Source: Urechidicola sp.
GTDB taxonomy: Bacteria; Bacteroidota; Bacteroidia; Flavobacteriales; Flavobacteriaceae
Length of the DNA: 64,000 nucleotides
Assembly (NCBI GenBank): GCA_965248525.1
Contig: CBDFJO010000003.1
Coordinates: 41,727-105,726 of the forward strand
Direction of reading: 5' to 3'
In this document: positions 2,260 to 63,605 of the stretch, piece after piece
Layout of the letters: every line of letters starts with the position of its first letter
Position numbering within the stretch: the stretch's first letter is position 1
The notes under the pieces: generated by a model
The model's input: only the letters and a program-made list of their open reading frames with translations
What the model was told of the DNA's origin: nothing
Databases searched by the model: none
Position numbers and translations under genes: made by a program

Positions 2260-3537
2260 TTAGCCATCCCCTGTTTTTTTTAGAAATTCTAAATTAAGTT
2301 GTCCGCTACTCTCTATAGGCGGTATTTTTATTATATTCCATCTGCTTTTGGTTGGCATTAGTAGTATGGAAACCACCTTTGATATTTTGTAATAAATGAA
2401 ATTGATTAGTTCCCTCACACTCTGCCTGTTTAGATAGTTATAGCCTGCATTAAGCAACAAGTTAAAATGTAACGCTTGTATTTTCTTGTAAATCATATAC
2501 ATTGCCACAGTCAAAACAGCAAGCATTGACTGTAATCCATCAAAGGTTTTTAGTTGAATATCTTCCAATTTATATTCTTGTTTTATATGTCTGTGATATT
2601 CTTCTATTTTCCATCGTAAACCATACCCTTTAAAAGCCCATTTAGCAACTTCTATAGCTGTAGAAAGTTTGCTTTTGACAAGTAAATAACAGAGACCTCC
2701 GTGTCTTACATTTCTCGAAACGACTAACCACAATGAGAGTGTAACTCCCTTTATGGTGTAATTTATTGGGATTGCTCCTAATTGATACTCTTTTAAAACA
2801 GGTTTGTTTTTCTTTACCTTGGTCACTGTTTGTGTTATTGAAAAATCTATTTTTTTAAGAAGTTGGCTTACTTGTAACTCATTCTCTTTATGGTATAATT
2901 TTGTGTTTCTCTTCAAGCGAATGATTGTTTGTGAGCATTCACTGACAAAAAAATCTTTTAAAATACCACTATCTGCTCCTCTATCAAAAACCCAACAGCC
3001 TCTATGGGCTACATATTTCTGTACTTCTCTTACGGCTTTTTTTATTTCATTATTACTGCTTAATGCCCCCATTTCAAAACTATAAGCTTTGCTATAAAGA
3101 GGTGTTATTTCTTTATGATTGCTAATCACATTTATGTTTAAGACATTATAACCAAGTCCGATTTTGCTAGTATCACCATCCTTTACAAACTCCAAGCCCT
3201 CCATATATTTAGCATATTTTTTGCTGATGTCAGTACCGTCCATAAGAATAAAATTATCTTTTGAAATACTATTTCCAACGGTTTCAAGGTGAGTAGTCAT
3301 CACTTTTTCTGCATAATCTCCCTTTAAGTATTGAGCAGAAAGGCGCTTGCAAACATCTTTCAATTTTATAGACTCTCGTAAACTAGCTGCTATTTGATTT
3401 ACAAATACAGATTTTGACTTTAAAATTCCTAAAACCATCTCTTTTAAACAACGTGTTTCTGGTTTGGTCATTTCTGAATTAGATAAAAAATAGTCACTTA
3501 ATTGGGTTTGTATCTTTTTTGTTAGTATCTTGCTCAT
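2260..3537 (-). CDS. IS4-family DDE transposase
   Basis: DGT..., DRG..., YGLRWKIEEYHRHIK (Y-R-E-K signature); stop lies inside the TIR. Confidence 0.9.
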   Translation of the reverse strand: MSKILTKKIQTQLSDYFLSNSEMTKPETRCLKEMVLGILKSKSVFVNQIAASLRESIKLKDVCKRLSAQYLKGDYAEKVMTTHLETVGNSISKDNFILMDGTDISKKYAKYMEGLEFVKDGDTSKIGLGYNVLNINVISNHKEITPLYSKAYSFEMGALSSNNEIKKAVREVQKYVAHRGCWVFDRGADSGILKDFFVSECSQTIIRLKRNTKLYHKENELQVSQLLKKIDFSITQTVTKVKKNKPVLKEYQLGAIPINYTIKGVTLSLWLVVSRNVRHGGLCYLLVKSKLSTAIEVAKWAFKGYGLRWKIEEYHRHIKQEYKLEDIQLKTFDGLQSMLAVLTVAMYMIYKKIQALHFNLLLNAGYNYLNRQSVRELINFIYYKISKVVSILLMPTKSRWNIIKIPPIESSGQLNLEFLKKTGDG

Positions 3538-19639: not shown

Positions 19640-19840
19640 CTATTCTGTTCCTTCATTTTTAAATTTTTTCAATTGTCCCATCCAGTAAACAATTGCAACC
19701 ATACAGATGACAGCAAGAATCCAACTAAAAGTGTTTTGCACCCACCAATTTGAAACATCGTTACGCAACCATTCAAATGGTAGAAATCCAATATTTGTGA
19801 AAAAATCACCAATAACTCTAAAAATATTGTTTGCAATCAT
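19640..19840 (-). CDS. Small conserved membrane protein (DUF6341-like)
   Basis: 66 aa, one TM helix, ends MGQLKKFKNEGTE. Confidence 0.55.
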   Translation of the reverse strand: MIANNIFRVIGDFFTNIGFLPFEWLRNDVSNWWVQNTFSWILAVICMVAIVYWMGQLKKFKNEGTE

Positions 19841-19902
19841 AATTAATTGTATTTACACTGCAAATGTATAAAAACTCATGATGACTGCAAATTTTTTTTA
19901 TG

Positions 19903-20027
19903 ACTTAAGTTAAATTAGCAAATGTAACTTTTTAAGATTCATTTAGCATATCTATTTTTATCAATATTGGAATTTAAAAAAGTATAAAAATTTGATAATT
20001 ATTGCGTATTGTAGAATTTTATTTATC
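19903..20027. repeat. Conserved array-tail element, copy 1
   Basis: Roughly 80% identical by eye to 50520-50646; both abut the last attC-like site of an array. Confidence 0.75.
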
Positions 20028-20147
20028 GGTTTTGTATAAGATTTGTGCGGCTTAAAATCCGTAGGATTTTCAGCCTATTACAAATGTTTGTTGGTTGTTT
20101 TGGTTTTCAATTTTTCTTTAAATATAGCATAAAACTTATACGTTGTT
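20025..20147 (-). other. attC-like site (terminal, GAT core)
   Basis: tgtataag...cttatac arms, inner ggct.aaaatcc/ggatttt.agcc hairpin, ends gttgttagcaaac. Confidence 0.65.
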
Positions 20148-20157
20148 AGCAAACGTT

Positions 20158-20664
20158 TTAATTTCTATCCTCAATTATATTTTCAATATTTCCGTTATCA
20201 ATTTTGACTTCATCTTTTTCAGACAGAATTGCAAGTTTTACTGTCTCCAGAATTTCTCCGTGTGTTTGATTAAATAATTTATTCAATGCATTTTCGGGAA
20301 AGTCAGATGTTTTATTTTTTATGGCGAGTTTAATGATTTCACGACTTCTCGTGCTATCACAGATTTCCATTAACATCATAGCCATACTTATTGAATCATA
20401 CTTTTTCCAATATGACTCTTCCTTTAAATAAAATTTTTCTCGTGCTTTTGAATAATATTTTTGAGCCTCTTTATTATTCTCCGATATTTCTAGGATTAAG
20501 GCTCTTTGAGCAAGATAATAATACGATTCAGGATTTTCGTTTATTAACTTTTTATTGATTTCAAGTTCATTGCCAAACTTTTCGTTTTCAGTCAACTTGG
20601 TTGTCTTTTCTTTTTGACAACTTATTGTGATAATTAATGTTAATATTAGAAGTTTAATTTTCAT
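20158..20664 (-). CDS. Cassette-borne hypothetical lipoprotein (TPR-like helices)
   Basis: Lipobox TISC; flanked by gttagcaaacgtt (20145) and aatgtttgctaat (20669-20681). Confidence 0.65.
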   Translation of the reverse strand: MKIKLLILTLIITISCQKEKTTKLTENEKFGNELEINKKLINENPESYYYLAQRALILEISENNKEAQKYYSKAREKFYLKEESYWKKYDSISMAMMLMEICDSTRSREIIKLAIKNKTSDFPENALNKLFNQTHGEILETVKLAILSEKDEVKIDNGNIENIIEDRN

Positions 20665-20668
20665 TCGT

Positions 20669-20730
20669 AATGTTTGCTAATGTTAAGATAAAGTTTCGTT
20701 TTAATGAACTTTATCTTACGATATGTAAAG
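20669..20730 (-). other. Palindromic recombination-site-like sequence upstream of the cassette gene
   Basis: taagataaagtt/aactttatctta inverted repeat next to a degenerate core (ATT for GTT). Confidence 0.5.
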
Positions 20731-20810
20731 TTAGTTCAAATAATTGAGAAAGTCAAGTTTTATCAATTCTAAAATTTTATTGAGATAAAGTTGCATTTGC
20801 TAATTGAACT

Positions 20811-21016
20811 TAAAATTTACTAGCAAAACTGTACAAACTAACAAGCAAAGACTTGCTTTTTACTTATATCAAATAAAAGAGGTGATAGTACTTCAAATAA
20901 ACAACTTTAAACCAGCTAAAAATTTAGAATTCACATAAATTTTAAAATAGGTTTTCTCTAAAAATCGCTTATGTCAACTTTTTTGGACTGATTTTATATT
21001 CTTGTGCAACGATTAC
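20811..21016 (+). mobile_element. IS1182-family right-end remnant (~205 bp)
   Basis: Matches the last ~205 bp of the element at 61721-63467; ends cttgtgcaacgattac. Confidence 0.88.
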
Positions 21017-21096: not shown

Positions 21097-21446
21097 TTAA
21101 GATTTTAAACAACTTCGAATATTACAAAAATGTCCAATAATTGATGTTGAGAATAGAAACATTCCATATTCAAAAATTTCGGCACGTTCTTCGAGCAATA
21201 TGGATATCACAAAACCAGTAAAAACAATCCATAAAAACAGATTAATTCCTTTGGTGAAATTTCATTTTGTAGCTTTATAAATGGAAATAAATGCTGTCAA
21301 AACAAAGCCAAAAGCAATAATTGGATTACTCAGAAAACCAATTCCCATAGCTAAAAATGTAGGAACTGCAAGGCAATGGACGATACAGAGAATAGAACTA
21401 ATAACCCCTAATTTATCTGCCCAATATATTTTTTTGTTTGTATCAT
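21097..21446 (-). pseudogene. MerC-domain membrane protein, inactivated
   Basis: WADKLGVISSILCIVHCLAVP motif; -1 slip in A7 run near start and in-frame TGA at 21262-21264. Confidence 0.7.
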
Positions 21447-24890: not shown

Positions 24891-24944
24891 TGCAACCAAG
24901 TTGCGAAAATAGAAAATAAAATTTGCAATTGCAACACAGTTGCA
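24891..24944. promoter_or_regulatory. Two palindromic TGCAAC-N3-GTTGC operator-like boxes
   Basis: tgcaaccaagttgcg (24891-24905) and tgcaacacagttgca (24930-24944) between divergent ABC and Fur-like genes. Confidence 0.55.
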
Positions 24945-24959
24945 TTAATTTTGTCATTA

Positions 24960-25263
24960 ATAAAAATTATTAGAAAAACAAAAGCTGTAACTATAGTACT
25001 CCAAATTTTTGAAGAGAGAAACGAAGCCAAATTAGTAGTGCGTCTCATAGAACTTTTAATGGAAAAGATGGTTTAAAGTGGTATGCTAAATGTGAGGGAT
25101 GTTCTGCTAATCATCATTCGGACAAGCATCCACATTTCCAATGCACTAAATGCGATAAAGTCGAGTGTTTGTCTTTAGATATTAAAATTCCTACCATAAA
25201 AATCATAAAGTAGATTCTTCAGACATTCTCTTAATGGGGCAATGTGAAGTTTGTAGTTTGTGA
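24960..25263 (+). pseudogene. Fur-family metalloregulator, decayed
   Basis: IIRKTKAV start without ATG; KWYAKC...HPHFQCTKC...GQCEVC; internal deletion and frameshifts. Confidence 0.72.
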
Positions 25264-25274
25264 GTATTGGTTAC

Positions 25275-25327
25275 AACATATGGATAACCCTATTGTGGTT
25301 ATATTTTATATTCTTGTCAACGATTAC
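25275..25327 (-). other. attI-like head fused to IS1182 terminal remnant
   Basis: aac-atatggataaccctattgtggttatat then tattcttgt(g)caacgattac. Confidence 0.7.
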
Positions 25328-25600
25328 TTGTGTTAGCAAAAGTGCTTATAAATTACAATGTTCAGCTTTCTCTCTTTTTTCTTCTGTAAAACGAAAGGTA
25401 AATTCAAATTCTAGTTCACTGATTTCTTTTCTATTTTCATAGTTTTCAATTTCAGTTAAACCAAGTTCACACTCTGAATTATTACCATAAATAAAAACAC
25501 GACTACCACTAATCTCTACAAATGGATCATAATTATTTATTAAAGGTTTTTTACCGTATTCATAAGCATTAAATAAGCGATTTAAAATTATTTCGGATGT

Positions 25601-26623
25601 TTAAATACCTAAGCTATTAAACAACTCTTTTAATTCCTTCATAGAAGGCCTAGGCGCATTAGGAGTTATGATATTTCCTTTTGGATCGATTAAAATGAAT
25701 CTTGGAATCCCTTCTATCTTATAGTTTTTTATAAACTCAGATTTCCCTGCTTTGTCAGCTAATAATTGAATTCCCCCTAGTTTTTTTTCTTTAATCATCG
25801 TTTTCCATTTGTCATAATCTTTAGGTTTGTCTATAGAAAGACTTACAAACTCAATGTTTTTACCGTGGTAAGCTTTCTCTACTTCTTTTAAGTAAGGAAT
25901 TTCAGCTAGACAAGGACGGCACCAAGTAGCCCAAACATCAATATAGACATACTTTCCTTTTAAATCATCTAAAGAAGTCTTTCCACCAGCATTGTTTTCA
26001 TATGCTATAAATTTTGGAGAGGTTTTTCCTTTTCCTAAAGCAGTTTTTATGTAAGATGCCTTTTCTTGAAGACTTCCTAGATATTTCTTTAATCTGGCAA
26101 ATCCTAATTTCTCGTTTGCAACAAAAGCAGTATCTAAACCAGATACTCCATCAAGGTTTTTCATGAAATCACTTTCAACAGTTTCTAATTTTGCAACGAA
26201 ATTTTCTTTGCTCATCTCAAACATAGTTTTATTTGCAAGAAGAGCCTCTTGGTTTAATATTTTTTTAGCTAAATAGTTATTAGCCTCAGCACCACTTCCA
26301 GTATAAACAATAGTTTCATCAAACTGCTTCGTGTCTAAAGTTAAATGTACATCTTGACCATTTTTAAGGTAAAGATCAGTATCTTCTGTCCCATCGGATA
26401 ACCAAAAACCACCAGTTACTACTTTTAAAGTATCACTAAAAGCACCATCAGTAGCAACAGTAATTCGCTTTTTAAAGTTTCCGTCTGTATCTGATATGAC
26501 TAAGGAGTCAGAATTTTGATTTGTTATTTTTCCTGAAAACGTAACATAGTCCTTAGCCTCTTGTTTACAGGCAACTACTATTAAAGCAGCAATAGTCAAG
26601 TACATTAATTTTTTTATTTTCAT
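25601..26623 (-). CDS. TlpA-family thioredoxin-like lipoprotein, copy 1
   Basis: Lipobox VVAC; WATWCRPC; IPRFILIDPKG. Confidence 0.88.
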   Translation of the reverse strand: MKIKKLMYLTIAALIVVACKQEAKDYVTFSGKITNQNSDSLVISDTDGNFKKRITVATDGAFSDTLKVVTGGFWLSDGTEDTDLYLKNGQDVHLTLDTKQFDETIVYTGSGAEANNYLAKKILNQEALLANKTMFEMSKENFVAKLETVESDFMKNLDGVSGLDTAFVANEKLGFARLKKYLGSLQEKASYIKTALGKGKTSPKFIAYENNAGGKTSLDDLKGKYVYIDVWATWCRPCLAEIPYLKEVEKAYHGKNIEFVSLSIDKPKDYDKWKTMIKEKKLGGIQLLADKAGKSEFIKNYKIEGIPRFILIDPKGNIITPNAPRPSMKELKELFNSLGI

Positions 26624-26666
26624 AATTTTTTGTTTTAAAGGTTAATGTTCATTTTACATTTTTACT

Positions 26667-26720
26667 AACATATGTATAACCCTATTGTGGTTATATTTTA
26701 TATTCTTGTGCAACGATTAC
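26667..26720 (-). other. attI-like head fused to IS1182 terminal remnant
   Basis: aac-atatgtataaccctattgtggttatat then tattcttgtgcaacgattac. Confidence 0.7.
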
Positions 26721-26990
26721 TTGTGTTAGCAAAAGTGCTTATAAATTACAATGTTCAGCTTTCTCTCTTTTTTCTTCTGTAAAACGAAAGGTAAATTCAA
26801 ATTCTAGTTCACTGATTTCTTTTCTATTTTCATAGTTTTCAATTTCAGTTAAACCAAGTTCACACTCTGAATTATTACCATAAATAAAAACACGACTACC
26901 ACTAATCTCTACAAATGGATCATAATTATTTATTAAAGGTTTTTTACCGTATTCATAAGCATTAAATAAGCGATTTAAAATTATTTCGGA

Positions 26991-28013
26991 TTAAATACCT
27001 AAGCTATCAAACAACTCTTTTAATTCCTTCATAGAAGGCCTAGGCGCATTATGAGTTATGATATTTCCTTTTGGATCGATTAAAATGAATCTTGGAATCT
27101 CTTCTATCCTATAGTTTTTTAAAAACTCAGATTTCCCTGTTGTTGTTCTGTCAGCTAATAATTGAATTCCCCCTAGTTTTTTTTCTTTAATCATCGTTTT
27201 CCATTTGTCATGATCTTTAGGTTCGTCTATAGAAAGACTTACAAACTCAATGTTTTTACCGTGGTAAGCTTTCTCTACTTCTTTTAAGTAAGGAATTTCA
27301 GCTAGACAAGGACGGCACCAAGTAGCCCAAATATCAATATAGACATACTTTCCTTTTAAATCATCTAAAGAAGTCTTTCCACCAGCATTGTTTTCATATG
27401 CTATAAATTTTGGAGAGGGTTTTCCTTTTCCTAAAACAGTTTTTATGTAAGATGCCTTTTCTTGAAGAATTCCTAGAAATCTCTTTAATCCGACAAATCC
27501 TAATTTCTCGCTTGCAACAAAAGCAGTATCTAAACCAGATACTCCATCAAGGTTTTTCATAAAATCACTTTCAATAGTTTCTAATTTTGCATCGAAATCT
27601 TCTTTGCTCATCTCAAGCAGAGTTTTATTTGTAAAAAGATCTCCTTGGTTTAATACTTTTTTAGCTAAATAGTTATTAGCCTCAGCACCACTTCCAGTAT
27701 AAACAACAGTTTCATCAAACTGCTTCGTGTCTAAAGTTAAATGTACATCTTGACCATTTTTAAGGTAAAGATTAGTCTGTTCTTTCCCATCTTGTAACCA
27801 AAAACCACCAGTTACTACTTTTAAAGTATCACTAAAAGTACCATCAGCAGCAACAGTAATTCGCTTTTTAAAGGTTCCGAATCCTATGAGTAAGGAGTCA
27901 GAATTTTGATTTGTTATTTTTCCTGAAAACGTAACATAGTCCTTAGCCTCTTGTTTACAGGCAACTACTATTAAAGTAGCAATAGTCAAGTACATTAATT
28001 TTTTCATTTTCAT
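26991..28013 (-). CDS. TlpA-family thioredoxin-like lipoprotein, copy 2
   Basis: Paralog of 25601-26623; WATWCRPC. Confidence 0.88.
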   Translation of the reverse strand: MKMKKLMYLTIATLIVVACKQEAKDYVTFSGKITNQNSDSLLIGFGTFKKRITVAADGTFSDTLKVVTGGFWLQDGKEQTNLYLKNGQDVHLTLDTKQFDETVVYTGSGAEANNYLAKKVLNQGDLFTNKTLLEMSKEDFDAKLETIESDFMKNLDGVSGLDTAFVASEKLGFVGLKRFLGILQEKASYIKTVLGKGKPSPKFIAYENNAGGKTSLDDLKGKYVYIDIWATWCRPCLAEIPYLKEVEKAYHGKNIEFVSLSIDEPKDHDKWKTMIKEKKLGGIQLLADRTTTGKSEFLKNYRIEEIPRFILIDPKGNIITHNAPRPSMKELKELFDSLGI

Positions 28014-28078
28014 AATTTTTTGTTTTAAAGGTTTAAAGGTTAATGTTCAAAGGTTAATGTTCATTTTATATTTTTACT

Positions 28079-28127
28079 AACATACGTATAACCTATTGTG
28101 GTTATATTTTATACGTCCGCAAATGTA
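28079..28127 (-). promoter_or_regulatory. Array head: attI-like site with TAnnTTTG promoter box firing into the array
   Basis: Minus strand tacatttg (28120-28127) ... tataaccacaataggttata-cgtat-G|TTAGT. Confidence 0.68.
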
Positions 28128-40674: not shown

Positions 40675-41643
40675 ATGTTTTCATATTTTAAATCAAAAGA
40701 AAAAAATAGAAATGCTTTTACAATTGCATTTTATAACCTCGAAAATCTATTTGATACCGTTGATGACCCAAAAACGTTTGATGATGATTTTACTTCAGGC
40801 GGAAAATTGAAATGGAATAAAAAAAGATATTTTAAGAAAATTAGTAAGTTGAGCTATGTAATAAAACAATTGGGAACAGAAAAATCGTTTGTTCCTCCAG
40901 TACTTGTTGGTGTTGCAGAAGTTGAAAACAAAAAAGTTTTAGAAGATTTAGTTCGTTCTAAAAACCTACAAAAATTTCATTATAATTATGTGCATTATGA
41001 TTCTCTAGACGACAGAGGAATTGATGTAGGATTGCTATACAACAAGCAATTATTTGAGTTACTACATTCTGAACGATTCTCTCTGTATATAGAAAATGAA
41101 GAAGGTGAGCAAGACTTTACTCGTGATGTCTTATTAGTCAAAGGAAACTTTAATGGTGAATTGATGTATATACTTGTCAATCATTGGCCTTCGCGAAGAC
41201 AAGGTACGGAAGAGTCAGAATATAAACGTGTAAAAGCATCAGAATTAAATAGAGAAATTATTGATAAAATACGCCTTGAAGATGAAAAAGCAAAAATTGT
41301 TGTCATGGGTGATTTTAATGACAATCCAACAAATAAGAGCATTCAAAATCTAATCAAAGAGGACTTTTACAATCCTATGCAAAGTTTGCTTTCAAAAAGA
41401 AAAGGTACACTAAAGCATAAAGATGATTGGTACTTGTTTGACCAAATTATTTTTTCTAAAAACTTTATAGAAGTTAAAGAGCACCAACATTCGTTTAAAT
41501 ATGCCGAGGTTTTTGACCGTGATTTTCTAAAAGTTTTTAAAGGGAAAAACAAAGGGAAACCTTTTAGAACATTTATTGGACCTTGGTATCAAGGAGGTTT
41601 TAGCGATCATTTTCCTGTATATGTGTATTTGAAGAAAAATTAG
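40675..41643 (+). CDS. Endonuclease/exonuclease/phosphatase (EEP) family protein, no signal peptide
   Basis: FYNLENLFDT, NHWPSR, GDFND, SDHFP. Confidence 0.88.
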   Translation: MFSYFKSKEKNRNAFTIAFYNLENLFDTVDDPKTFDDDFTSGGKLKWNKKRYFKKISKLSYVIKQLGTEKSFVPPVLVGVAEVENKKVLEDLVRSKNLQKFHYNYVHYDSLDDRGIDVGLLYNKQLFELLHSERFSLYIENEEGEQDFTRDVLLVKGNFNGELMYILVNHWPSRRQGTEESEYKRVKASELNREIIDKIRLEDEKAKIVVMGDFNDNPTNKSIQNLIKEDFYNPMQSLLSKRKGTLKHKDDWYLFDQIIFSKNFIEVKEHQHSFKYAEVFDRDFLKVFKGKNKGKPFRTFIGPWYQGGFSDHFPVYVYLKKN

Positions 41644-46169: not shown

Positions 46170-47216
46170 ATGAAACATATTTCCCTTTTTGCCACAACTT
46201 TTTTTCTTGTCGGAAATATGACCTTTTCACAAGATAAAAACTACCAAATAAGAACACTTGCTTTTTATAACCTTGAGAATCTTTTTGATACGATTGACAA
46301 CACAGCAAAGAATGATGAGGCGAGTCCGATGATGGAGTTGAAGGGTAATAAGTCAAAAGTTTATTGGGATAAAATTGATAAACTTGGAAGTGTCCTTTCT
46401 AAAATAGGTGTTGAAAAAGCAAAGAACAGTCCTGCAATAATTGGAGTTGTAGAGATTGAAAATGATACAGTTTTAAGAGATCTGGTTGCTGGAAAGTTTC
46501 TAAAAGATAAGCGATACAGTATTATACATTATGAATCTCCAGACAAAAGGGGAATTGATGTAGGACTGTTATATCAGCCACGTTATTTTAAGCCTGTAAA
46601 TCATGAAAGCTTTGAATTATTGATTTATGATAATGAAGGAGAACGAATTTTCACAAGAGATCAACTATTAGTTTCAGGGTATTTAGATGGAGAAATGATA
46701 CACGTAATCGTTAATCATTGGCCATCAAAAAGAGGAGGAACAAGAAGCATCCCTTTTAGAGAAAAAGCTGCAGCATTGAATTTGAAAATCATAGAACAGA
46801 TTCGTGAAAACGAACCAAATGCTAAAATTATAACGATGGGAGATTTTAATGATGATCCTATTGAAAGCAGTTTTAAGAAAATAATGAAAACAAAGAAGAA
46901 AAAGAAGAATGTAAAAGAAAATGATATTTACAATCCTTTTGAAAACATGTTTATAAGAGGTTTTAATACCGCAGGTTATAGAGATAATATCAATCTGTTT
47001 GACCAAATCCTTATTAGTTCTCAATTATTAACAACGACCAAAGAATTTTCTACTTACAAAATGTTAAAAGCGGGAATTTACAATCCTAAATACTTAATAA
47101 ACAGCAAAGGAAGGTATAAGGGCTACCCTTTTAGAAGTTTTTCTTGGGGGATATACACAGGAGGTTATAGCGATCACTATCCTTCTTACATGTACCTTAT
47201 CAAAGAGAAAAAATAA
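46170..47216 (+). CDS. Secreted EEP-family nuclease/phosphatase
   Basis: Signal peptide; FYNLENLFDT, NHWPS, GDFND, SDHYP. Confidence 0.88.
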   Translation: MKHISLFATTFFLVGNMTFSQDKNYQIRTLAFYNLENLFDTIDNTAKNDEASPMMELKGNKSKVYWDKIDKLGSVLSKIGVEKAKNSPAIIGVVEIENDTVLRDLVAGKFLKDKRYSIIHYESPDKRGIDVGLLYQPRYFKPVNHESFELLIYDNEGERIFTRDQLLVSGYLDGEMIHVIVNHWPSKRGGTRSIPFREKAAALNLKIIEQIRENEPNAKIITMGDFNDDPIESSFKKIMKTKKKKKNVKENDIYNPFENMFIRGFNTAGYRDNINLFDQILISSQLLTTTKEFSTYKMLKAGIYNPKYLINSKGRYKGYPFRSFSWGIYTGGYSDHYPSYMYLIKEKK

Positions 47217-47287: not shown

Positions 47288-48328
47288 ATGAAACATTTTT
47301 TAAGTACGCTTGTAGTATTATTTTTCGTTTTATTTTCTTTTTCTCAACAAAAAGAATATAAAATTAAAACGATTGCTTTTTACAATCTCGAAAATTTATT
47401 TGACACGATTGATAATCCTGATAAAAAGGATGAATATAGTCCTATTCTTCAAATGAAGTCAGGAAAAGAGACTGCTTACACTCAAAAGAGCGATAATATG
47501 GCAAAGGTAATTTCTGAAATAGGAAAAGAGAAAACTAGGAAAAGCCCTTCAATTATTGGTGTTTGTGAAATTGAAAATAGTGATGTGCTTGATGATTTAT
47601 TGAAAAACAAGAATTTAAAAAATGAAGGTTACAACTATGTTCATGTTGATTCTCCAGATTGGCGGGGAATTGACGTTGCATTGATTTATAAAGAATCTGA
47701 TTTTAGTGTTTCAAATTTTAAAACATACGAACTCAAAGCATGGAATAGTGAAGGATACCGTGTTAAAACTCGCAGTCAATTATTGGTTTCAGGATATTTA
47801 GACGGCGAATTAATCCATATTATAGTTAATCATTGGCCATCACAACGTGGAGGCGCAAAAAAATCGGAATATTTAAGAGTAAAATCAGCAGAGTTAAACC
47901 TTAAAATTATTGAAGATATCTATTTTGAAGAGCCAAATGCTAAAATAATTACGCTAGGTGATTTTAATGACAATCCAGATGCAAAAAGCATCAAAAAAAC
48001 CTTAGATTCTAAAGAGAAAAAGATAAACGCAGGGAATTTATACAATCCTTTCGCGAATATGTATAAAAGAGGTTTTGGCTCGTTAGGTTTTCTTGACAAT
48101 ATGAATTTGTTTGATCAAATCTTATTTACATCTAATTTTTTATCAGAAGATGTTAGAGATTATGATTCGTATAAATTTTACAAAACAACTATTTTCAACC
48201 CAAATTATTTAACCACACGAAAAGGAAGGTATAAAGGCTATCCGTTTAGAAGCTGGTCAAACGGAAAATTTACGGGAGGATATAGCGATCATTATCCTGT
48301 TTATGTATATTTGATTAAAGAGAAGTAA
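47288..48328 (+). CDS. Secreted EEP-family nuclease/phosphatase (paralog)
   Basis: Signal peptide; same motifs. Confidence 0.88.
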   Translation: MKHFLSTLVVLFFVLFSFSQQKEYKIKTIAFYNLENLFDTIDNPDKKDEYSPILQMKSGKETAYTQKSDNMAKVISEIGKEKTRKSPSIIGVCEIENSDVLDDLLKNKNLKNEGYNYVHVDSPDWRGIDVALIYKESDFSVSNFKTYELKAWNSEGYRVKTRSQLLVSGYLDGELIHIIVNHWPSQRGGAKKSEYLRVKSAELNLKIIEDIYFEEPNAKIITLGDFNDNPDAKSIKKTLDSKEKKINAGNLYNPFANMYKRGFGSLGFLDNMNLFDQILFTSNFLSEDVRDYDSYKFYKTTIFNPNYLTTRKGRYKGYPFRSWSNGKFTGGYSDHYPVYVYLIKEK

Positions 48329-50043: not shown

Positions 50044-50457
50044 TTATTGTTCTATATACTCAACATTCACAGTAACAACAGTAAATTTACGAAACATTTC
50101 TATGACACCACAATATTTTTCTATTGATAAATCTACAGCTTTTTGAATTTTATCTTTTTTAAATTCTTTCCAAAAAAAACGATACGTTACAATTACATTT
50201 TTATAAATTTTAGGGTGCTCATCCGTTAAATCTGCAGTAACATCAATCTTAAAATCATCTACTTCTGCACGCATTTTTTTTAATAAAAGTACAATGTCTA
50301 AACCGCCACATCTAGCCAAAGAACTCAGCATTAATGCTTTGGGACTCATTCCTCTGCTTTTAGACCCATCAATTGGATTGTCAATCATAAAACTGCCATC
50401 ATCGTGTTTGGATTCAAATAACATATTGTCTTTCCAAGTTAATTCTACTTTTGCCAT
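50044..50457 (-). CDS. OsmC-family protein
   Basis: SPKALML...CGG...KYC. Confidence 0.82.
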   Translation of the reverse strand: MAKVELTWKDNMLFESKHDDGSFMIDNPIDGSKSRGMSPKALMLSSLARCGGLDIVLLLKKMRAEVDDFKIDVTADLTDEHPKIYKNVIVTYRFFWKEFKKDKIQKAVDLSIEKYCGVIEMFRKFTVVTVNVEYIEQ

Positions 50458-50519
50458 ATTTTTAGTATTTATTAAGTTTCAAATTTAAGCATTTCATATC
50501 AACTTCATTTTTTAATTTA

Positions 50520-50646
50520 ACTTAAGTTCAATTAGTAAATGCAACTTTTTAGGATACGGTCAGCGTATCTATTTTTATGAATATTGAAGTTCAAAAAAAG
50601 TATAAAAATTTGAGAGCTATTGTGTATTGTAGAATTTTATATTATC
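50520..50646. repeat. Conserved array-tail element, copy 2
   Basis: Homologous to 19903-20027. Confidence 0.75.
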
Positions 50647-50680
50647 CCCGGCCAAAAAGCGTTGTTGTCCCGCAGGGCAA

Positions 50681-51178
50681 CTATGGTTTTTTAGCCATTA
50701 TTAGCATTCGTTTTAGTTCTTCTTTATTCGGTATTTTTCCTTTTAATTTTTCAGGTAAATTGTGTGTCAGTTTATATTCCGAAACGCCAATAGGTTTAGA
50801 ACTCGTTCTTAAAGCATATTCTACTTCAACATCATCTTTTTCAGGACAAAGAATTATTCCGATTGTTGGGTTATCGTCCTCTATTTTTACTTGTTCGTCC
50901 AAAAGTTCCAAATAGAAATTCATCTTTCCTGCAAATTCAGGTTCAAATTCGACTGTTTTTAACTCAATTGCTACTAAACATTTTAATATTCTGTGATAGA
51001 ACAGTAAATCAATAAAATATTCTTTTTCATTTAGTTTTAACTTATATTGATTACCAATAAAGCAAAAACCATATCCAAGTTCCATTATTAAATTTCGGAT
51101 ATTCTCTATTAACTTGTTTTCTAGTTGTCTTTCCAATATTGGAGAAGTGATTCCTAGAAAATCTAAGTTGTATTCCTC
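50681..51178 (-). pseudogene. DUF1016/YhcG PD-(D/E)XK nuclease, 5'-truncated
   Basis: YNLDFLG...IDLLFYHR..LVAIELK...GKMNFYL; frame starts without ATG at a REP-like repeat. Confidence 0.78.
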
Positions 51179-51312
51179 GTTGGCGCAAGCGTCACGCTTG
51201 TGCCGTTAACCAAACTCAAACCATTTATTATCTTATTATAATTTCTACTCATTATTTTTTTATCTTCTTAATCTTGCTGTCACGAGCAAAAGATGCTCGC
51301 GCTAGCGAGGGG
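51175..51312. repeat. Divergent pair of REP-like palindromes
   Basis: cctcgttggcgcaagcgtcacgcttgtgc (51175-51203) and cacgagcaaaagatgctcgcgctagcgagggg (51281-51312). Confidence 0.6.
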
Positions 51313-51393
51313 AATTTTAAAATAGGGTTTCTCTAAAAAAATCGCTTAGGTCAACTTTTTTGGATTGATTTTATATTCTTGTGCAACGATTAC
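51312..51393 (+). mobile_element. IS1182-family right-end remnant (~80 bp)
   Basis: Near-identical to the end of 61721-63467. Confidence 0.88.
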
Positions 51394-51411: not shown

Positions 51412-52326
51412 TTATTTACTCGGAATTGGAGGAGGAGCTGCTTGTTCGATATATGCAATACCATTGTGATTTTCAATTATTTTCACACAATGTGTACTTG
51501 AAAATGTATGCATAAAAGCGTGATGTGTAGTAAGAACAGCATCTTGAAGTTCTTGGTTTTCTTCTAGGTCAGAAATTACTAAACCAACATCTAAACATTC
51601 CTTTTTTGAAATATGTCTTGCGTGTGATTTTTGGACATTATGGTTAGAGAAAGTATCAACTATTTTTTTTACTTTTTCTTTGTCTCCATTACACATATTA
51701 TTTTCTAACCATTCAAAGACCATTTTTTCAGACCATTCAATTGCTTGTTGACAAGCTCCTAAAAAAGTTGGATGATATTTACTAATAATTACTTGCCATA
51801 AAGAAGCTGAATGTGGATTTTGTTTAATGTCCGCTTTTGCTTGTTCAAATTCATTTAAAACTGCTTGACAAGCTAAACCTCCCATTTGTGGGTCTATAGG
51901 ACCTAAATTTGAATGTTTCCCCATAACGATTTCTTTCGAAGCGAAGGCAATCATTGTACCTGCAGACATTGATATTTGTGGAACTATAACTCGAATATCT
52001 TTCCCATACATTGAATAAAGGTAATCAACTAAAGATTCTGTAGCTGCAATGTCTCCGCCAGGAGTATGTAGAATTAAATCTAAACCTTGACTTCTGTCAA
52101 GTTTGTTAATTCCTAACATAAATCCAGATTTATCTTTGTCTCCCACTGCAGTTCCAGGAGCTTGAGGTTTTTGAAGCCAACCTGAATAATAAGCTATCGT
52201 GTTTCTGCCTGTAATTTCTGACACCTTTTTAAGGTACTTTCTTCTTACAGTATCTAACGCATTAACTTTAGGGTTTTTTCTTTGTTCTAGTTGAATTTCA
52301 ACAATGACTTCATTCCAATTCGGCAT
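51412..52326 (-). CDS. ClpP/SDH-like serine peptidase (cassette-borne)
   Basis: LHTPGG, SMSAGTMIA, LGPIDPQ, SHARHI. Confidence 0.8.
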   Translation of the reverse strand: MPNWNEVIVEIQLEQRKNPKVNALDTVRRKYLKKVSEITGRNTIAYYSGWLQKPQAPGTAVGDKDKSGFMLGINKLDRSQGLDLILHTPGGDIAATESLVDYLYSMYGKDIRVIVPQISMSAGTMIAFASKEIVMGKHSNLGPIDPQMGGLACQAVLNEFEQAKADIKQNPHSASLWQVIISKYHPTFLGACQQAIEWSEKMVFEWLENNMCNGDKEKVKKIVDTFSNHNVQKSHARHISKKECLDVGLVISDLEENQELQDAVLTTHHAFMHTFSSTHCVKIIENHNGIAYIEQAAPPPIPSK

Positions 52327-55899: not shown

Positions 55900-56420
55900 G
55901 TGTGCCTTGAATGGTAAATATACTAAAAGTTCTTTAAAAAGAAGTATTTATTTAAGAGAAAGTCCAAAGGGTGTAAGTCCCTTATGCGCAGGAGTAACAT
56001 TTTGAAGCCAAGTAAGTCGCAAGGGTGCTAACTGCGAAGTTATATCTGAAGTAAGCGAGACTACGTTGTCTGAACTGACGAACAGAAACGGGATACGAGG
56101 CATAGTTATTTAGGATAAGTAAGCACACCATTGCAAAGTCCTACGAATACCAAAAGAATAACTATGTAGATTCCGCAGGCTTAGACAAAAGGACATTTAC
56201 CTTACCAAGGGAGGTCTCTGTAATCACGAGATGATATAGCAGAGAAGTCAGCAGAAGTCATAGTACTTGTAGGAAAACGAGCCATAAAACAAATGGAGGT
56301 CTCACAAGCAAGCAAGGACAGAACATTAAACGTTTGCGTGAATTTGAATTCATAGGTTAAACAACGTACAGTAGTATAGGGGACTTCTAAAATTTAATTC
56401 ATTGTTAATCAGATAATTAT

Positions 56421-57503
56421 ATGTATCTTTCGTACTATAATCAAAACTGTAATAAAATGTATAAACCCAGAGGGAAAAAAGGATTATTTGATGAAGAATT
56501 TACAAAAGATCGCTTATCATCAATAGGCAATCCATTAGAAAACATAAGTAAAGTTATTGATTTTGAATTATTTAGAGAATTGCTAGAGCATAAGTTACTC
56601 AACACTAACAAAAAAAGCAATGCAGGAGCAAAACCTTATGACTTGGTAATGATGTTTAAAATATTGATACTTCAACGTTATTATGGTTTAGGAGATAGTC
56701 AAGTTGAATATCAAATATTAGATAGAATGAGTTTTAAAACATTTTTAGGATTAGAGACTGGCGATAAAGTACCAGATGAAAAAACCGTATGGAGTTTTAG
56801 AGAACGTGTAACAAAAACAGGTTTAGTAGAAGAATTATTTGAGCAGTTTACTTTCTTTTTAGAAGAAAAAAAACTCATATTTAATGAAGGACAATTGATT
56901 GATGCCAGTTTTACAGTAGCACCACGCCAAAGAAACACAAGGAAAGAAAACAAGAAAATAAAAGACGGTAAGGGTAATGAATTATGGAATGACAAACCCA
57001 ACAAGAAAAAACATAAAGATATTGATGCACGTTGGACAAAGAAAAATGGTGAAACTTTCTTTGGTTATAAAAATCACGCAAAGGTAGGCACTAAAAGTAA
57101 ATTCATTAACACTTACACAGTAACAGACGCCTCGGTTCACGACTCACAAGCTTTGGATGACTTGCTTACCGAAAAAGATAAAAACCAAGATTTACACGCA
57201 GATAGTGCATACACAGGCAAAGAGCAAGATAAGATTATCAAAAAATATGAAATGAAAAATAAAGTACACGAAAAAGGCTATCATAATAAACCATTGACAG
57301 AGAAACAAAAAGCAAGCAACACTAAAAAATCAAAAATTAGAGCAAGAGTAGAGCATGTATTTGGCTTTATGGAGCAAAGTATGAAAGGTTTAGTTTTAAA
57401 ATCAGTAGGAATTATAAGAGCATCAGGAATAATTGGTTTAATCAACTTAACCTACAATTTATTTAGGTATGAACAAATCAAAAGATTAAACATAACTTAC
57501 TGA
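56421..57503 (+). CDS. IS5-family transposase
   Basis: PDEKTVWSFRE, IDASF, DIDARW, ADSAY, RARVEHVFG; likely start at MYKPRG. Confidence 0.9.
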   Translation: MYLSYYNQNCNKMYKPRGKKGLFDEEFTKDRLSSIGNPLENISKVIDFELFRELLEHKLLNTNKKSNAGAKPYDLVMMFKILILQRYYGLGDSQVEYQILDRMSFKTFLGLETGDKVPDEKTVWSFRERVTKTGLVEELFEQFTFFLEEKKLIFNEGQLIDASFTVAPRQRNTRKENKKIKDGKGNELWNDKPNKKKHKDIDARWTKKNGETFFGYKNHAKVGTKSKFINTYTVTDASVHDSQALDDLLTEKDKNQDLHADSAYTGKEQDKIIKKYEMKNKVHEKGYHNKPLTEKQKASNTKKSKIRARVEHVFGFMEQSMKGLVLKSVGIIRASGIIGLINLTYNLFRYEQIKRLNITY

Positions 57504-57574
57504 TAGACGGATAGATTGGATAGATGGATAGATGGATAGATGGATAGATGGATAGATGGATAGATGGATAGATG
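57502..57574 (+). repeat. 8-bp tandem repeat (GATAGATG) inside IS5
   Basis: 7 perfect copies at 57519-57574 plus 2 degenerate copies. Confidence 0.95.
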
Positions 57575-57756
57575 GAATTTGATGTTTTGTGTATCAAAAT
57601 CAAAAAATATTACTACCTTTGTAGTGTTAATCTTTTTTCTAAAAAAGATAAAAAAGGGTTCTCATCTTTTTTAGAAAACTGAAAAACCAATTTTTAGAAC
57701 TCCCCTATAGTTTAACTTAACGGACAGAGGAGCAATAACAAAGTAACAATTTAATT

Positions 57757-61720: not shown

Positions 61721-63467
61721 GTGCCTGTTGCACAAGATACAATTAATTTCACAAAAATAATAATAATAAGGTTTTAAATTATTTTGTTAATCCATTGATA
61801 TTAAGTATCTTTATACATGCAAGGAAAGAAAATATACCAAGAAAAGTTGTTTGCTAATTTTCAGTTAAGCGACCGAGTTCCCAAGAACAATTTTTATCGA
61901 AGATTACATAAAGTTTTAGATTTAGACTTTTTGTATAAACTCACAAGACCATTTTATGGAGAGAGTGGACAGGAGAGTATTGATCCTATAGTTTTCTTTA
62001 AACTTTGTTTAGTAGGATATTTAGAAAACATCATAAGCGATCGCAAATTAATCTCTCATTGTGCAATGCGGTTAGATATTTTGTATTTTATAGGTTATGA
62101 TATTGATGAGCCATTACCTTGGCATTCTACCATAAGTCGTACCCGACAATTATATACAGAAGCAGTATTTGAAGAATTTTTTACCAAAGTATTACAAATG
62201 TGTATAAACAAAGGGATGGTTTCTGGTCATACCCAAGCCATAGATTCTGCACCTATAAAAGCCAATGCTTCTATGGATACATTGGAACTAAAAGTACCTG
62301 CCGAAGAACTAGAAGATTATTTACTCAAGGTTCGTCATATTAGCGATGTAGATAAACCCAAGAATACACGTAAAGCAAAAGAGAATAAGGCAAGTAAGGA
62401 GCAACAAACTGTTACTGCAAAGCCAAGTGAATTACAAGCCATAAAAAGCAGAAATAAAAAATGGTCTAAAGACCAGAATTATCGTCCAGGGGCAGGAAAT
62501 AAGGGATCTAAATATACATCCAACAAAACCCATTATAGTCCAACCGATCCAGATGCTCGGATAAGTGTCAAGCCAGGCAAAGCTAGGAAGCTCAACTATA
62601 GTAGTCAACTAAGTGTAGATACGGGTCATCATGTGATAACAGATATTAAAGCCTATCATGCAGATAAAAAAGACAGTCAATGTTTAGAAGATATCACTGT
62701 TCGATTAAAAAAGCGCTTAGATAAAAACGGATTACTTTGGCAAAACATATTGGCAGATACAGGCTATAGTGATGGTAGCAATTATGCCTTTTTAGAAACC
62801 GAAGCCTTAGAAAGTTATATCCCACCACATGGAACTTACAAAGGAGGACCAGAAGGTTTTTTATATGATAAAGAACAAGATTGTTATATATGTCCACAAG
62901 GAAAAACAATACCGTTTAAAAAAGTGTTTAGAGATTATAAAACAGGTACAAAAAAGAAAGAATATAGATGTTCATCACTAATTTGTAAGACTTGCCCTAT
63001 AAAGCAACAATGTTTGGGCAAAACTGCACAAGAAAAGAAGTTTACTGTAACCTATTATCGAGAAGAATATGAACGCAATAACAAAAGAGTAAACTCCAAA
63101 CAAGGACGTTATATGAAATACAAACGCAGTAGTACTGTTGAGCCTGTTTTTGGGACCCTCACTCAATTTATGGGACTCCGTAAAATAAATACGATTGGTA
63201 TTCAACAAGCCAACAAGGTCATGCATATGGCTGCAATTGCTTATAATATCAAGAAATACCTAAAATTCACTAGCAAAACTGTACAAACTAACAAGCAAAG
63301 ACTTGCTTTTTACTTATATCAAATAAAAGAGGCAATAGTACTTCAAATAAGCAACTTTAAACCAGTTAAAAATTTAGAATTTGTATGAATTTTAAAATAG
63401 GGTTTCTCTAAAAAATCGCTTAGGTCAACTTTTTTGGATTGATTTTATATTCTTGTGCAACGATTAC
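61721..63467 (+). mobile_element. IS1182-family element, complete
   Basis: 16-bp imperfect TIR GTgcctGTTGCACAAG / rc GTaatcGTTGCACAAG; 4-bp CATT duplication. Confidence 0.88.
61817..63388 (+). CDS. IS1182-family transposase
   Basis: GQESIDP, PWHSTISR, AIDSAP, TDPDAR, LADTGY, CxxCP..C, RSSTVEPVFG. Confidence 0.9.
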   Translation: MQGKKIYQEKLFANFQLSDRVPKNNFYRRLHKVLDLDFLYKLTRPFYGESGQESIDPIVFFKLCLVGYLENIISDRKLISHCAMRLDILYFIGYDIDEPLPWHSTISRTRQLYTEAVFEEFFTKVLQMCINKGMVSGHTQAIDSAPIKANASMDTLELKVPAEELEDYLLKVRHISDVDKPKNTRKAKENKASKEQQTVTAKPSELQAIKSRNKKWSKDQNYRPGAGNKGSKYTSNKTHYSPTDPDARISVKPGKARKLNYSSQLSVDTGHHVITDIKAYHADKKDSQCLEDITVRLKKRLDKNGLLWQNILADTGYSDGSNYAFLETEALESYIPPHGTYKGGPEGFLYDKEQDCYICPQGKTIPFKKVFRDYKTGTKKKEYRCSSLICKTCPIKQQCLGKTAQEKKFTVTYYREEYERNNKRVNSKQGRYMKYKRSSTVEPVFGTLTQFMGLRKINTIGIQQANKVMHMAAIAYNIKKYLKFTSKTVQTNKQRLAFYLYQIKEAIVLQISNFKPVKNLEFV

Positions 63468-63605
63468 CATTGTTGTGTTTTCGTTTTTTATTTTCATTTC
63501 GTTTTAACGTTGGGGCAAACATACTCTTTGGCAAGTTTTGGCTCGTGTGGTTGGTTTTTGAGCGACTTGACAATGTGTATGGTTGCTGGGTGATGGAATT
63601 CATCT

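Follow-up and report, generated by a model that had tools for sequence, protein, structure and literature searches.

Two non-coding sequences of about 125 bp in a 64,000-nucleotide stretch of a Urechidicola sp. contig (the whole stretch analysed here, hereinafter the window) lie at the ends of cassette-type DNA, next to core genes that have nothing in common. They raise the question of what these "tails" are, and whether they had a part in bringing cassette arrays to their present sites. We favor, and hold to be reasonably probable, a reading in which the tail makes up the left-end half of a small non-autonomous element that descends from an insertion sequence (IS) of the IS30/IS4351 type and carries cassettes between its halves.

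The earlier note on this DNA, made from the letters alone, had described tails that are about 80% identical and lie upstream of unrelated core genes, and the repeat is borne out by global alignment, in which tail A (19903-20027) and tail B (50520-50646) agree in 108/127 columns (85%). Their local alignment score is 87, whereas ~2000 random 127-mers from the window average 13 and reach at most 26. Outside the ends of the tails, identity falls to 61% and 48% (60 bp on each side), so that the repeat is sharp-ended. Each tail sits between a cassette-type hairpin and one of the following core genes:

19640-19840, minus strand (19840→19640): DUF6341 gene (Pfam E 1.1e-16), beside tail A
50044-50457, minus strand (50457→50044): osmC, encoding OsmC (Pfam E 1.3e-14), beside tail B

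The cassette strand is the minus strand, and on it both tails open with GATAA(A/T)ATAAAATTCTACAATAC, the start that had been pointed out before; tail B starts 3 nt past the 3' arm of the last palindrome and tail A starts 21 nt past its hairpin. The inverted 27-bp recurrence reported by the earlier note is likewise real: the 27-mer AAAGTTGCATTTGCTAATTGAACTTAA is found three times with at most 2 mismatches (19905-19931 and 50522-50548 on the minus strand and, inverted, 20787-20813 on the plus strand), the chance expectation being zero. The claim that the tail closes two arrays holds for B, where the cassette region covers at least 13 kb and has its far end beyond the window, and needs a qualification for A, where the "array" amounts to one cassette-like ORF (20158-20664). 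No tail is present at a third array of the window (25260-28120); in this tail-less array, at 25318-28033, a cassette for a 340-aa thioredoxin/TlpA-like protein is tandemly duplicated (97-100% identical, 1.39-kb period). Rfam and tRNA scans detected nothing at either tail, the sole Rfam match in the window being a group II intron at 56028.

Judging by sequence similarity, the outer 29 bp of the tail is a left terminal inverted repeat (IR), of the IRL type, of an IS30/IS4351-type IS:

19904-19932, minus strand: outer part of tail A, IRL-type IR; 26/29 to the IRL consensus CTTAAGTTCAATTAGTAAATGCAACTTTT and 23/30 to the IS4351 IRL; tip toward the native DUF6341 promoter region
50521-50549, minus strand: outer part of tail B, IRL-type IR; 29/29 to the IRL consensus and 26/30 to the IS4351 IRL

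This consensus was built from full-length IS30 copies in other Bacteroidota; the inverted copy in locus A (20786-20814) matches it at 26/29 positions. The tail B IR has its tip 63 bp ahead of the osmC start codon, with TAA (50518-50520, plus strand) outside it, and, as seen in the alignment with relatives, native sequence resumes beside the tip. A scan of one genome per species for the motif AAGTTNCATTTNCTAATTNAACTT (a 24-mer core) yielded at least 110 loci in Bacteroidales, Flavobacteriaceae, Lentimicrobium and Ignavibacteria/Chlorobiota MAGs, and among the matches listed, a Tenacibaculum chromosome and another Flavobacteriaceae chromosome contain at least eight copies of the motif each. When the motif loci are aligned, one side is conserved within subfamilies and every sequence differs beyond …AACTTA, which is the signature of an element terminus.

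The element that belongs to this terminus is seen in other Bacteroidota. At one of the loci, L044, a 1160-bp element has the motif as its left IR and a right IR that overlaps the stop codon; the 323-aa ORF of this element encodes an IS30-family transposase (Pfam HTH_38 and rve; NF033563 E 5e-82). Full copies, 1058-1161 bp long, consist of an IS30 transposase flanked by IRL CTTAAGTTC… and IRR GGTAGATTC…; six of these, with the ends CTTAAGTTCAATTAGTAAATGCAACTTTT and GGTAGATTCAACTAGCAAATGCAACTTTTT, were examined for duplications, and five of the six show 3-bp target duplications. Outward-facing IR pairs 1058-1430 bp apart occur at nine loci among the matches listed in other Bacteroidota, and transposase-less IR pairs only 88-187 bp apart at five loci in other Bacteroidota. 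The best named relative is IS4351, whose IRL reads CTTGAGTTCAACTTATAAATGCAACTTTTT in a copy beside ermF on a Riemerella plasmid (26/30 to tail B). The earlier note had stated that its reading would fall if the tail were a fragment of a known IS, and this is the case for the outer 29 bp only, which are an IS30/IS4351 IR.

The remaining, inner part of the tail is of a different kind:

19933-20027, minus strand: inner part of tail A, a lineage-specific subterminal segment that stops sharply on its inner side, at 20027/20028; contig depth 41-73 vs ~4-6 in unique sequence
50550-50646, minus strand: inner part of tail B, the same module as in tail A, with the inner boundary at 50646; contig depth 32-57 vs ~3-4 in unique sequence

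The inner parts of the two tails are 83.5% identical. A profile of 88 IS30 left ends aligns with just the last 34-36 bp of either tail, and nothing past the IR is conserved in the alignment with the best BLAST candidates; with similarity ending ~35 bp from the tip in both comparisons, we rejected the possibility that the whole tail is an IS30 leader. Metagenomes scanned with a 23-mer from the inner part returned one chance match, in a contig otherwise unlike the tail; two scans of viral collections with tail k-mers gave seed-length chance matches only, and searches of plasmid DNA with the tail gave low-complexity matches only. The inner ~95 bp appears to be without a relative outside the source sample in the collections searched. 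Single-strand folding detects no significant fold in tail A (z +0.18), and the value for tail B (z -2.35) comes from a hairpin that is present in B only; with the fold insignificant in one copy and the hairpin unshared in the other, no attC-like or RNA-like structure is seen in the tail. We also rejected the view that the tail by itself makes up a 125-bp MITE whose inner IR has degenerated, there being no significant inner IR and no duplication.

The distribution of the tail beyond the two copies in the window was assessed in four public runs (X1-X4) that contain the window sequence and whose contigs were placed on the window at a likeness of at least 80%. The source sample is complex (10-22 million contigs) and copies are assigned to one genome by depth alone, so that some of the tail copies could belong to other strains. 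Contig depth is ~3-6 in unique sequence, including the 168-aa ORF of locus A, 33-73 in the tail (up to ~117 in X2) and ~120 in the IR; the tail, at ~10 times the unique depth, corresponds to roughly ten copies in the sample's assemblies. The inner end is the same base in all tail copies (20022-20028; 50646), beyond which they run into at least nine different sequences, several of which are …CGCTTTTTRGCC palindrome/hairpin ends like that before tail B, or other intercassette-type sequence. The same inner end against differing sequences indicates that the tail is a discrete module, as opposed to the product of independent deletions. Among the copies that this sample yielded, the tail does close arrays. 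Furthermore, sample contigs with ~82% identity to the IS30 of L044 span the transposase gene at a depth of 20-25, which is 5-6 times the unique depth, and from this depth a source of transposase is probably present in the same genome. The leader of these IS30 contigs is L044-like and not tail-like, so that the tail is not simply the resident IS with its middle deleted.

Locus A provides a candidate for the other half of the element. On the minus strand, its order is head (21016→20815), inverted 27-mer (20813→20787), 168-aa ORF (20664→20158), hairpin (20075→20049), tail (20027→19904) and DUF6341 gene (19840→19640), and the segment between head and tail is made up of two features:

20679-20814, plus strand: partner ("right") module of 136 bp, with a hairpin (20683-20718), a decayed transposase 3' end and the inverted IS30 IR (20786-20814)
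20028-20678, minus strand: single-copy cargo between the IS30-type modules (unique depth, ~4), with the ORF 20158-20664 and a terminal hairpin (20049-20075)

The partner module retains ~10 codons of a transposase C-terminus, …KFY*DKVAFAN*, to be compared with …KFVNQKIAFAS* in L044. Its depth of 100-220 is about 25-50 times that of unique sequence, its inner boundary (~20674-20679) joins at least four different sequences, and most of its copies end in the IRR-type tip …GAATCTACC (loose end at 20808). At locus A, both tips are of the IRL type (…GAACTTAA) and do not form a pair of IRL and IRR; the inverted IR partner of tail A is 855 bp away. The hairpin 20683-20718 has a 12-bp stem, TTAAGATAAAGTT…AACTTTATCTTA, and occurs in the sample at ~40-60 times the unique depth; in another MAG of the Flavobacteriaceae, a motif similar to it adjoins a solo IS30 IR (L007 1790-1830).

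The cargo ORF, 20158-20664, has no Pfam or NCBIfam match and is followed, directly past its stop codon, by the R''-like box GTTTGCTAAC; the junction of a circular form of this 168-aa cassette would read …CTTATACA + AGCAAAC…. No IS30-type DDE transposase gene is present at 19904-20814, where the only ORF is that of 168 aa, on the opposite strand. The earlier note had proposed a search for empty junctions and for target duplications. Target duplications are lacking at locus A, where the flanks of the two tips read TGA vs ATT and the right flank is another repeat, not native DNA. Empty junctions do exist in the same sample, as joins of the tail to the partner module 20679-20814: two contigs from three runs join 20028 or 20032 straight to 20679, skipping 20029/20033-20678, and have no cargo. 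The resulting "empty" form measures ~265 bp between IR tips and is known as junction unitigs only, with 27-28 nt on the shorter side. Another contig omits just the ORF (20151→20675).

The earlier note had assigned the role of the tail's partner to another repeat, the "head":

20815-21016, minus strand: head A, 93% identical to 63258-63414; depth 95-480; cut off by the IS30-type module
51314-51393, minus strand: head B, the 80-bp end of the head repeat, directly past the stop codon of ORF 51412-52326
63258-63468, minus strand: head C, abutting an IS1182-family element; assembly break at 63259; head depth 125-265, body 22-40

The head is a high-copy repeat distinct from the tail, at ~40-100 times the unique depth vs ~10 times for the tail. 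Its core, ATCGTTGCACAAGAATATAAAAT / GTAATCGTTGCACAAGAATATAAAAT, occurs four times in the window (20991-21013, 26695-26717, 51368-51390 and 63442-63464), each time just past the …AACA… box of an intercassette site. The difference in depth and the position inside intercassette sites speak against the head as partner, a place that at locus A belongs to 20679-20814. One contig (runs X1 and X2) joins the head at 20850 to the tail at 20022, five bases inside the tail; these are odd break points.

Next to head C lies an IS1182-family element (~61790-63257; NF033551 E 2e-102), present in ~6-8 copies by depth, the 523-aa ORF of which runs 40 codons on into the adjacent head repeat; the NF033551 model spans aa 6-483 only. 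We rejected an assignment of the head to the IS1182 element as its right end, given that the transposase model stops at aa 483 and that the depths differ ~six-fold. An inverted copy of GTTGCACAAGATA at 61727-61740 suggests that the head is part of a ~270-bp element with terminal repeats, which targets intercassette sites and carries a nested IS1182.

At locus B, the order on the minus strand is SDH-protease-like ORF, short head (51393→51314), YhcG_C nuclease ORF (51136→50681), 47-nt palindrome, tail (50646→50521) and osmC (50457→50044). Two features lie on either side of the tail:

50647-51313, minus strand: last cassette beside tail B, with a truncated YhcG_C PDDEXK nuclease ORF (50681-51136) and the 47-nt palindrome (50650-50696)
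50480-50487, minus strand: native osmC -7 box TAAATTTG, downstream of the tail, in a block kept in the loci of all four relatives (…TAAATTTGAA…)

The nuclease ORF matches PF06250 (E 4e-58) at model positions 21-157 only; the Bacteroidota -7 consensus is TAnnTTTG. By its RecJ, the organism falls near Urechidicola and Lutibacter. In three relatives with RecJ proteins 83-89% identical (four loci, L112/L113, L114 and L116, with L112 and L113 having the same RecJ), a CMD-family gene is divergent from osmC, and the CMD|osmC spacer of these different species-level relatives is 39-80 bp long and contains no tail and no IS30 IR. The tail together with at least 13 kb of cassette DNA is accordingly an insertion into this spacer, and the tail, which the earlier note had made part of a mobile platform, is indeed the outer edge of inserted DNA. 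For locus A no empty site can be defined, as the relatives have the fur|ABC|ABC2|DUF3526|merC operon but diverge downstream of it. Within the operon region, the merC-like gene (21103-21441) has an in-frame TGA vs GGA in a relative; the fur gene (24929-25260), upstream of the ABC operon, aligns to the relative's Fur in two pieces only and looks degraded, and an array (array 2) begins right after it.

With respect to the putative attC sites, several intercassette sequences are imperfect palindromes that fold well (z -3.5 and -4.5 for two of them) and have AACAATG…CCGTT ends. No intI or Phage_integrase-type match was detected among the ~55 window ORFs scanned; the ORFs at 35-48 kb were judged to be core by synteny with L111. 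A GAT-for-GTT core at the start of the tail, as suggested by the earlier note, is not demonstrable: the bases to the left of GATAA differ from copy to copy, no att-like fold is common to the tails, and the ORFs scanned include no integrase. We do not claim an integron-type G|TT crossover at the tail at the level of single bases, as the junctions fit only to within 2 nt.

In the reading that we favor, the left half of the element would consist of the 29-bp terminal IR, a putative transposase binding site, and ~95 bp of element-specific sequence; the other half would be the ~136-bp module that ends in the inverted IR (20679-20814 in locus A), and the halves joined would make up the ~265-bp empty element. 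Cassette-type DNA would lie between the halves, one ORF in locus A and at least 13 kb in locus B, which would place the tail at the downstream end of the array and bring its IR tip up to native DNA. The resident IS30 transposase is predicted to move such IR-bounded units in trans to new intergenic sites, and some recombinase might insert cassettes at, or excise them from, a fixed position midway along the element, with capture taking place at this center. The idea of a mobile platform that was initially empty, put forward in the earlier note, survives in that the tail is multi-copy, has a fixed inner boundary, was inserted at osmC and takes part in empty junctions; it has to be revised in that the platform is IS30-derived and that its other half is not the head.

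A further step can be offered only tentatively, and we consider it doubtful as a whole: the miniature IS30-derived element could be a mobile landing pad, the center of which (…CTTTATCTTAACATT | (AAAC)CGATAAAT…) would be an attI-like point of cassette entry without a linked integrase, and copies of the pad, moved by the resident IS30 transposase, could have seeded the ~ten arrays on one Flavobacteriaceae chromosome. If this were true, the system would amount to a two-enzyme, fully trans-acting "distributed integron".

Several other explanations of the tails have to be weighed. IS30-type elements prefer palindromic hot spots and IRs as targets, and the tails could conceivably be dead relics, that is, IS30-type elements that inserted beside the terminal hairpins of existing arrays and decayed there, with no role in the movement or building of arrays. 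Such an origin would agree with the assignment of the IR to the IS30 family, with the IS-rich genome (IS1182, two further DDE transposases and the group II intron) and with the lack of a target duplication at locus A. We nevertheless regard it as unlikely: independent decay would not yield one inner boundary in at least nine copies that abut different sequences, and the leader of the resident IS30 is unlike the tail interior. Moreover, at osmC it is the IR tip and not the array hairpin that abuts native DNA, which implies that the array came in as a whole, the tail forming its outer edge. An improbable alternative takes the tail for the constant flank of a single ancestral array, spread by homologous recombination, segmental duplication or gene conversion, with the IR being incidental. 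The ~15% difference between tail copies with completely different neighbors can be accommodated by such a history, and the contig that joins head and tail (20850 to 20022) suggests an illegitimate or homologous rearrangement between repeats; the history would, however, leave unexplained why, at two loci with nothing in common, the homology stops precisely where an IS30 IR tip meets native DNA, and why an inverted IR closes locus A.

The tail might also be a regulatory module, an outward promoter or an insulator acting on the core gene downstream, a role that IS4351-type elements can have in Bacteroides. Outward promoters borne by IS elements have been reviewed (PMC9330008), and the tail A IR holds TACATTTG, a perfect Bacteroidota -7 box that reads toward the DUF6341 gene. 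This explanation seems very improbable to us, as the tail B IR has TGCATTTA in place of the -7 box, both core genes keep their own TAnnTTTG boxes downstream of the tail (19861-19868; 50480-50487), and the osmC box lies in a block that is conserved among relatives without the tail.

The element proposed here, of which the tail would be the left half, shares features with several known systems. It resembles the IS4351 group of the IS30 family in the terminal IR (26/30 to IS4351; 29/29 to the consensus built from full copies of other Flavobacteriaceae), in the orientation of the IR tip toward target DNA and in the decayed transposase 3' end of the partner module, and differs from it in that locus A has no transposase or 3-bp duplication, its cargo ORF is unrelated and on the opposite strand, and the tail interior is unlike the resident IS30 leader. 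Like MITEs and mobile insertion cassettes, it has no transposase and, at locus A, has passenger DNA between IRs that are probably those of a resident autonomous IS, and it is probably also short and multi-copy; unlike in these, the passenger is of the cassette type and lies at a single fixed position inside the element, array B covers at least 13 kb, and no target duplication is seen at locus A. In MITE-flanked class 1 integrons of Acinetobacter and in the 288-bp Integron Mobilization Unit (IMU) of Enterobacter cloacae, transposase-less IS-derived IR elements bracket cassette DNA, and the IMU, which shows no target duplication in the natural isolate, transposed when transposase was supplied (PMC3575428). 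Here too, DNA with cassettes is bracketed by IR elements, which could mobilize it with a transposase acting in trans. However, those integrons lie between two complete MITE copies and contain intI1, whereas in this marine flavobacterial host (Flavobacteriaceae) no linked integrase is present among the ORFs scanned and the cassettes seem to split one element into unlike halves. Finally, the arrays appear similar to integrons and CALINs in their same-strand small ORFs between imperfect palindromes with …AAC…/…GTT… ends and, as in CALINs, have no integrase nearby among the ORFs scanned, and the tail itself is neither attC nor attI, with no shared hairpin and no demonstrable core.

Integrase-less cassette arrays are usually regarded as immobile leftovers, and to our knowledge integron biology has barely been described in Bacteroidota. 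If arrays ride inside an IS30-derived miniature element, there would be a concrete route for the spread of whole arrays within a genome, which would also explain the presence of many small arrays beside unrelated core genes instead of one large array. The 29-bp IR together with the GATAA boundary could be used as a marker for array ends in related genomes.

Several additional observations were made in the course of this analysis. The window is rich in IS and includes an ORF of 425 aa for a DDE_Tnp_1 transposase at 2260-3537. The group II intron (56028-57584; RF02001, 108 bits) lies inside array B on the strand opposite to the cassettes, contains an ORF of RT/maturase size (56421-57503) and is followed by seven copies of the 8-bp tandem repeat TGGATAGA. 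Three paralogous ORFs (40675-41643, 46170-47216 and 47288-48328) share DNA repeats of the families D3, D11, D13 and D14; their syntenic counterparts in L111 and L112 are Exo_endo_phos_3 nucleases, and the number of paralogues varies among relatives. In other genomes, outward-facing IS30-type IR pairs surround non-transposase ORFs, namely a DUF6495 ORF in a Tenacibaculum MAG (L077 2289-3718) and a Wzi-like ORF with a 238-aa ORF (L098 3754-6696); these pairs may be further cargo-carrying IS30-bounded units.
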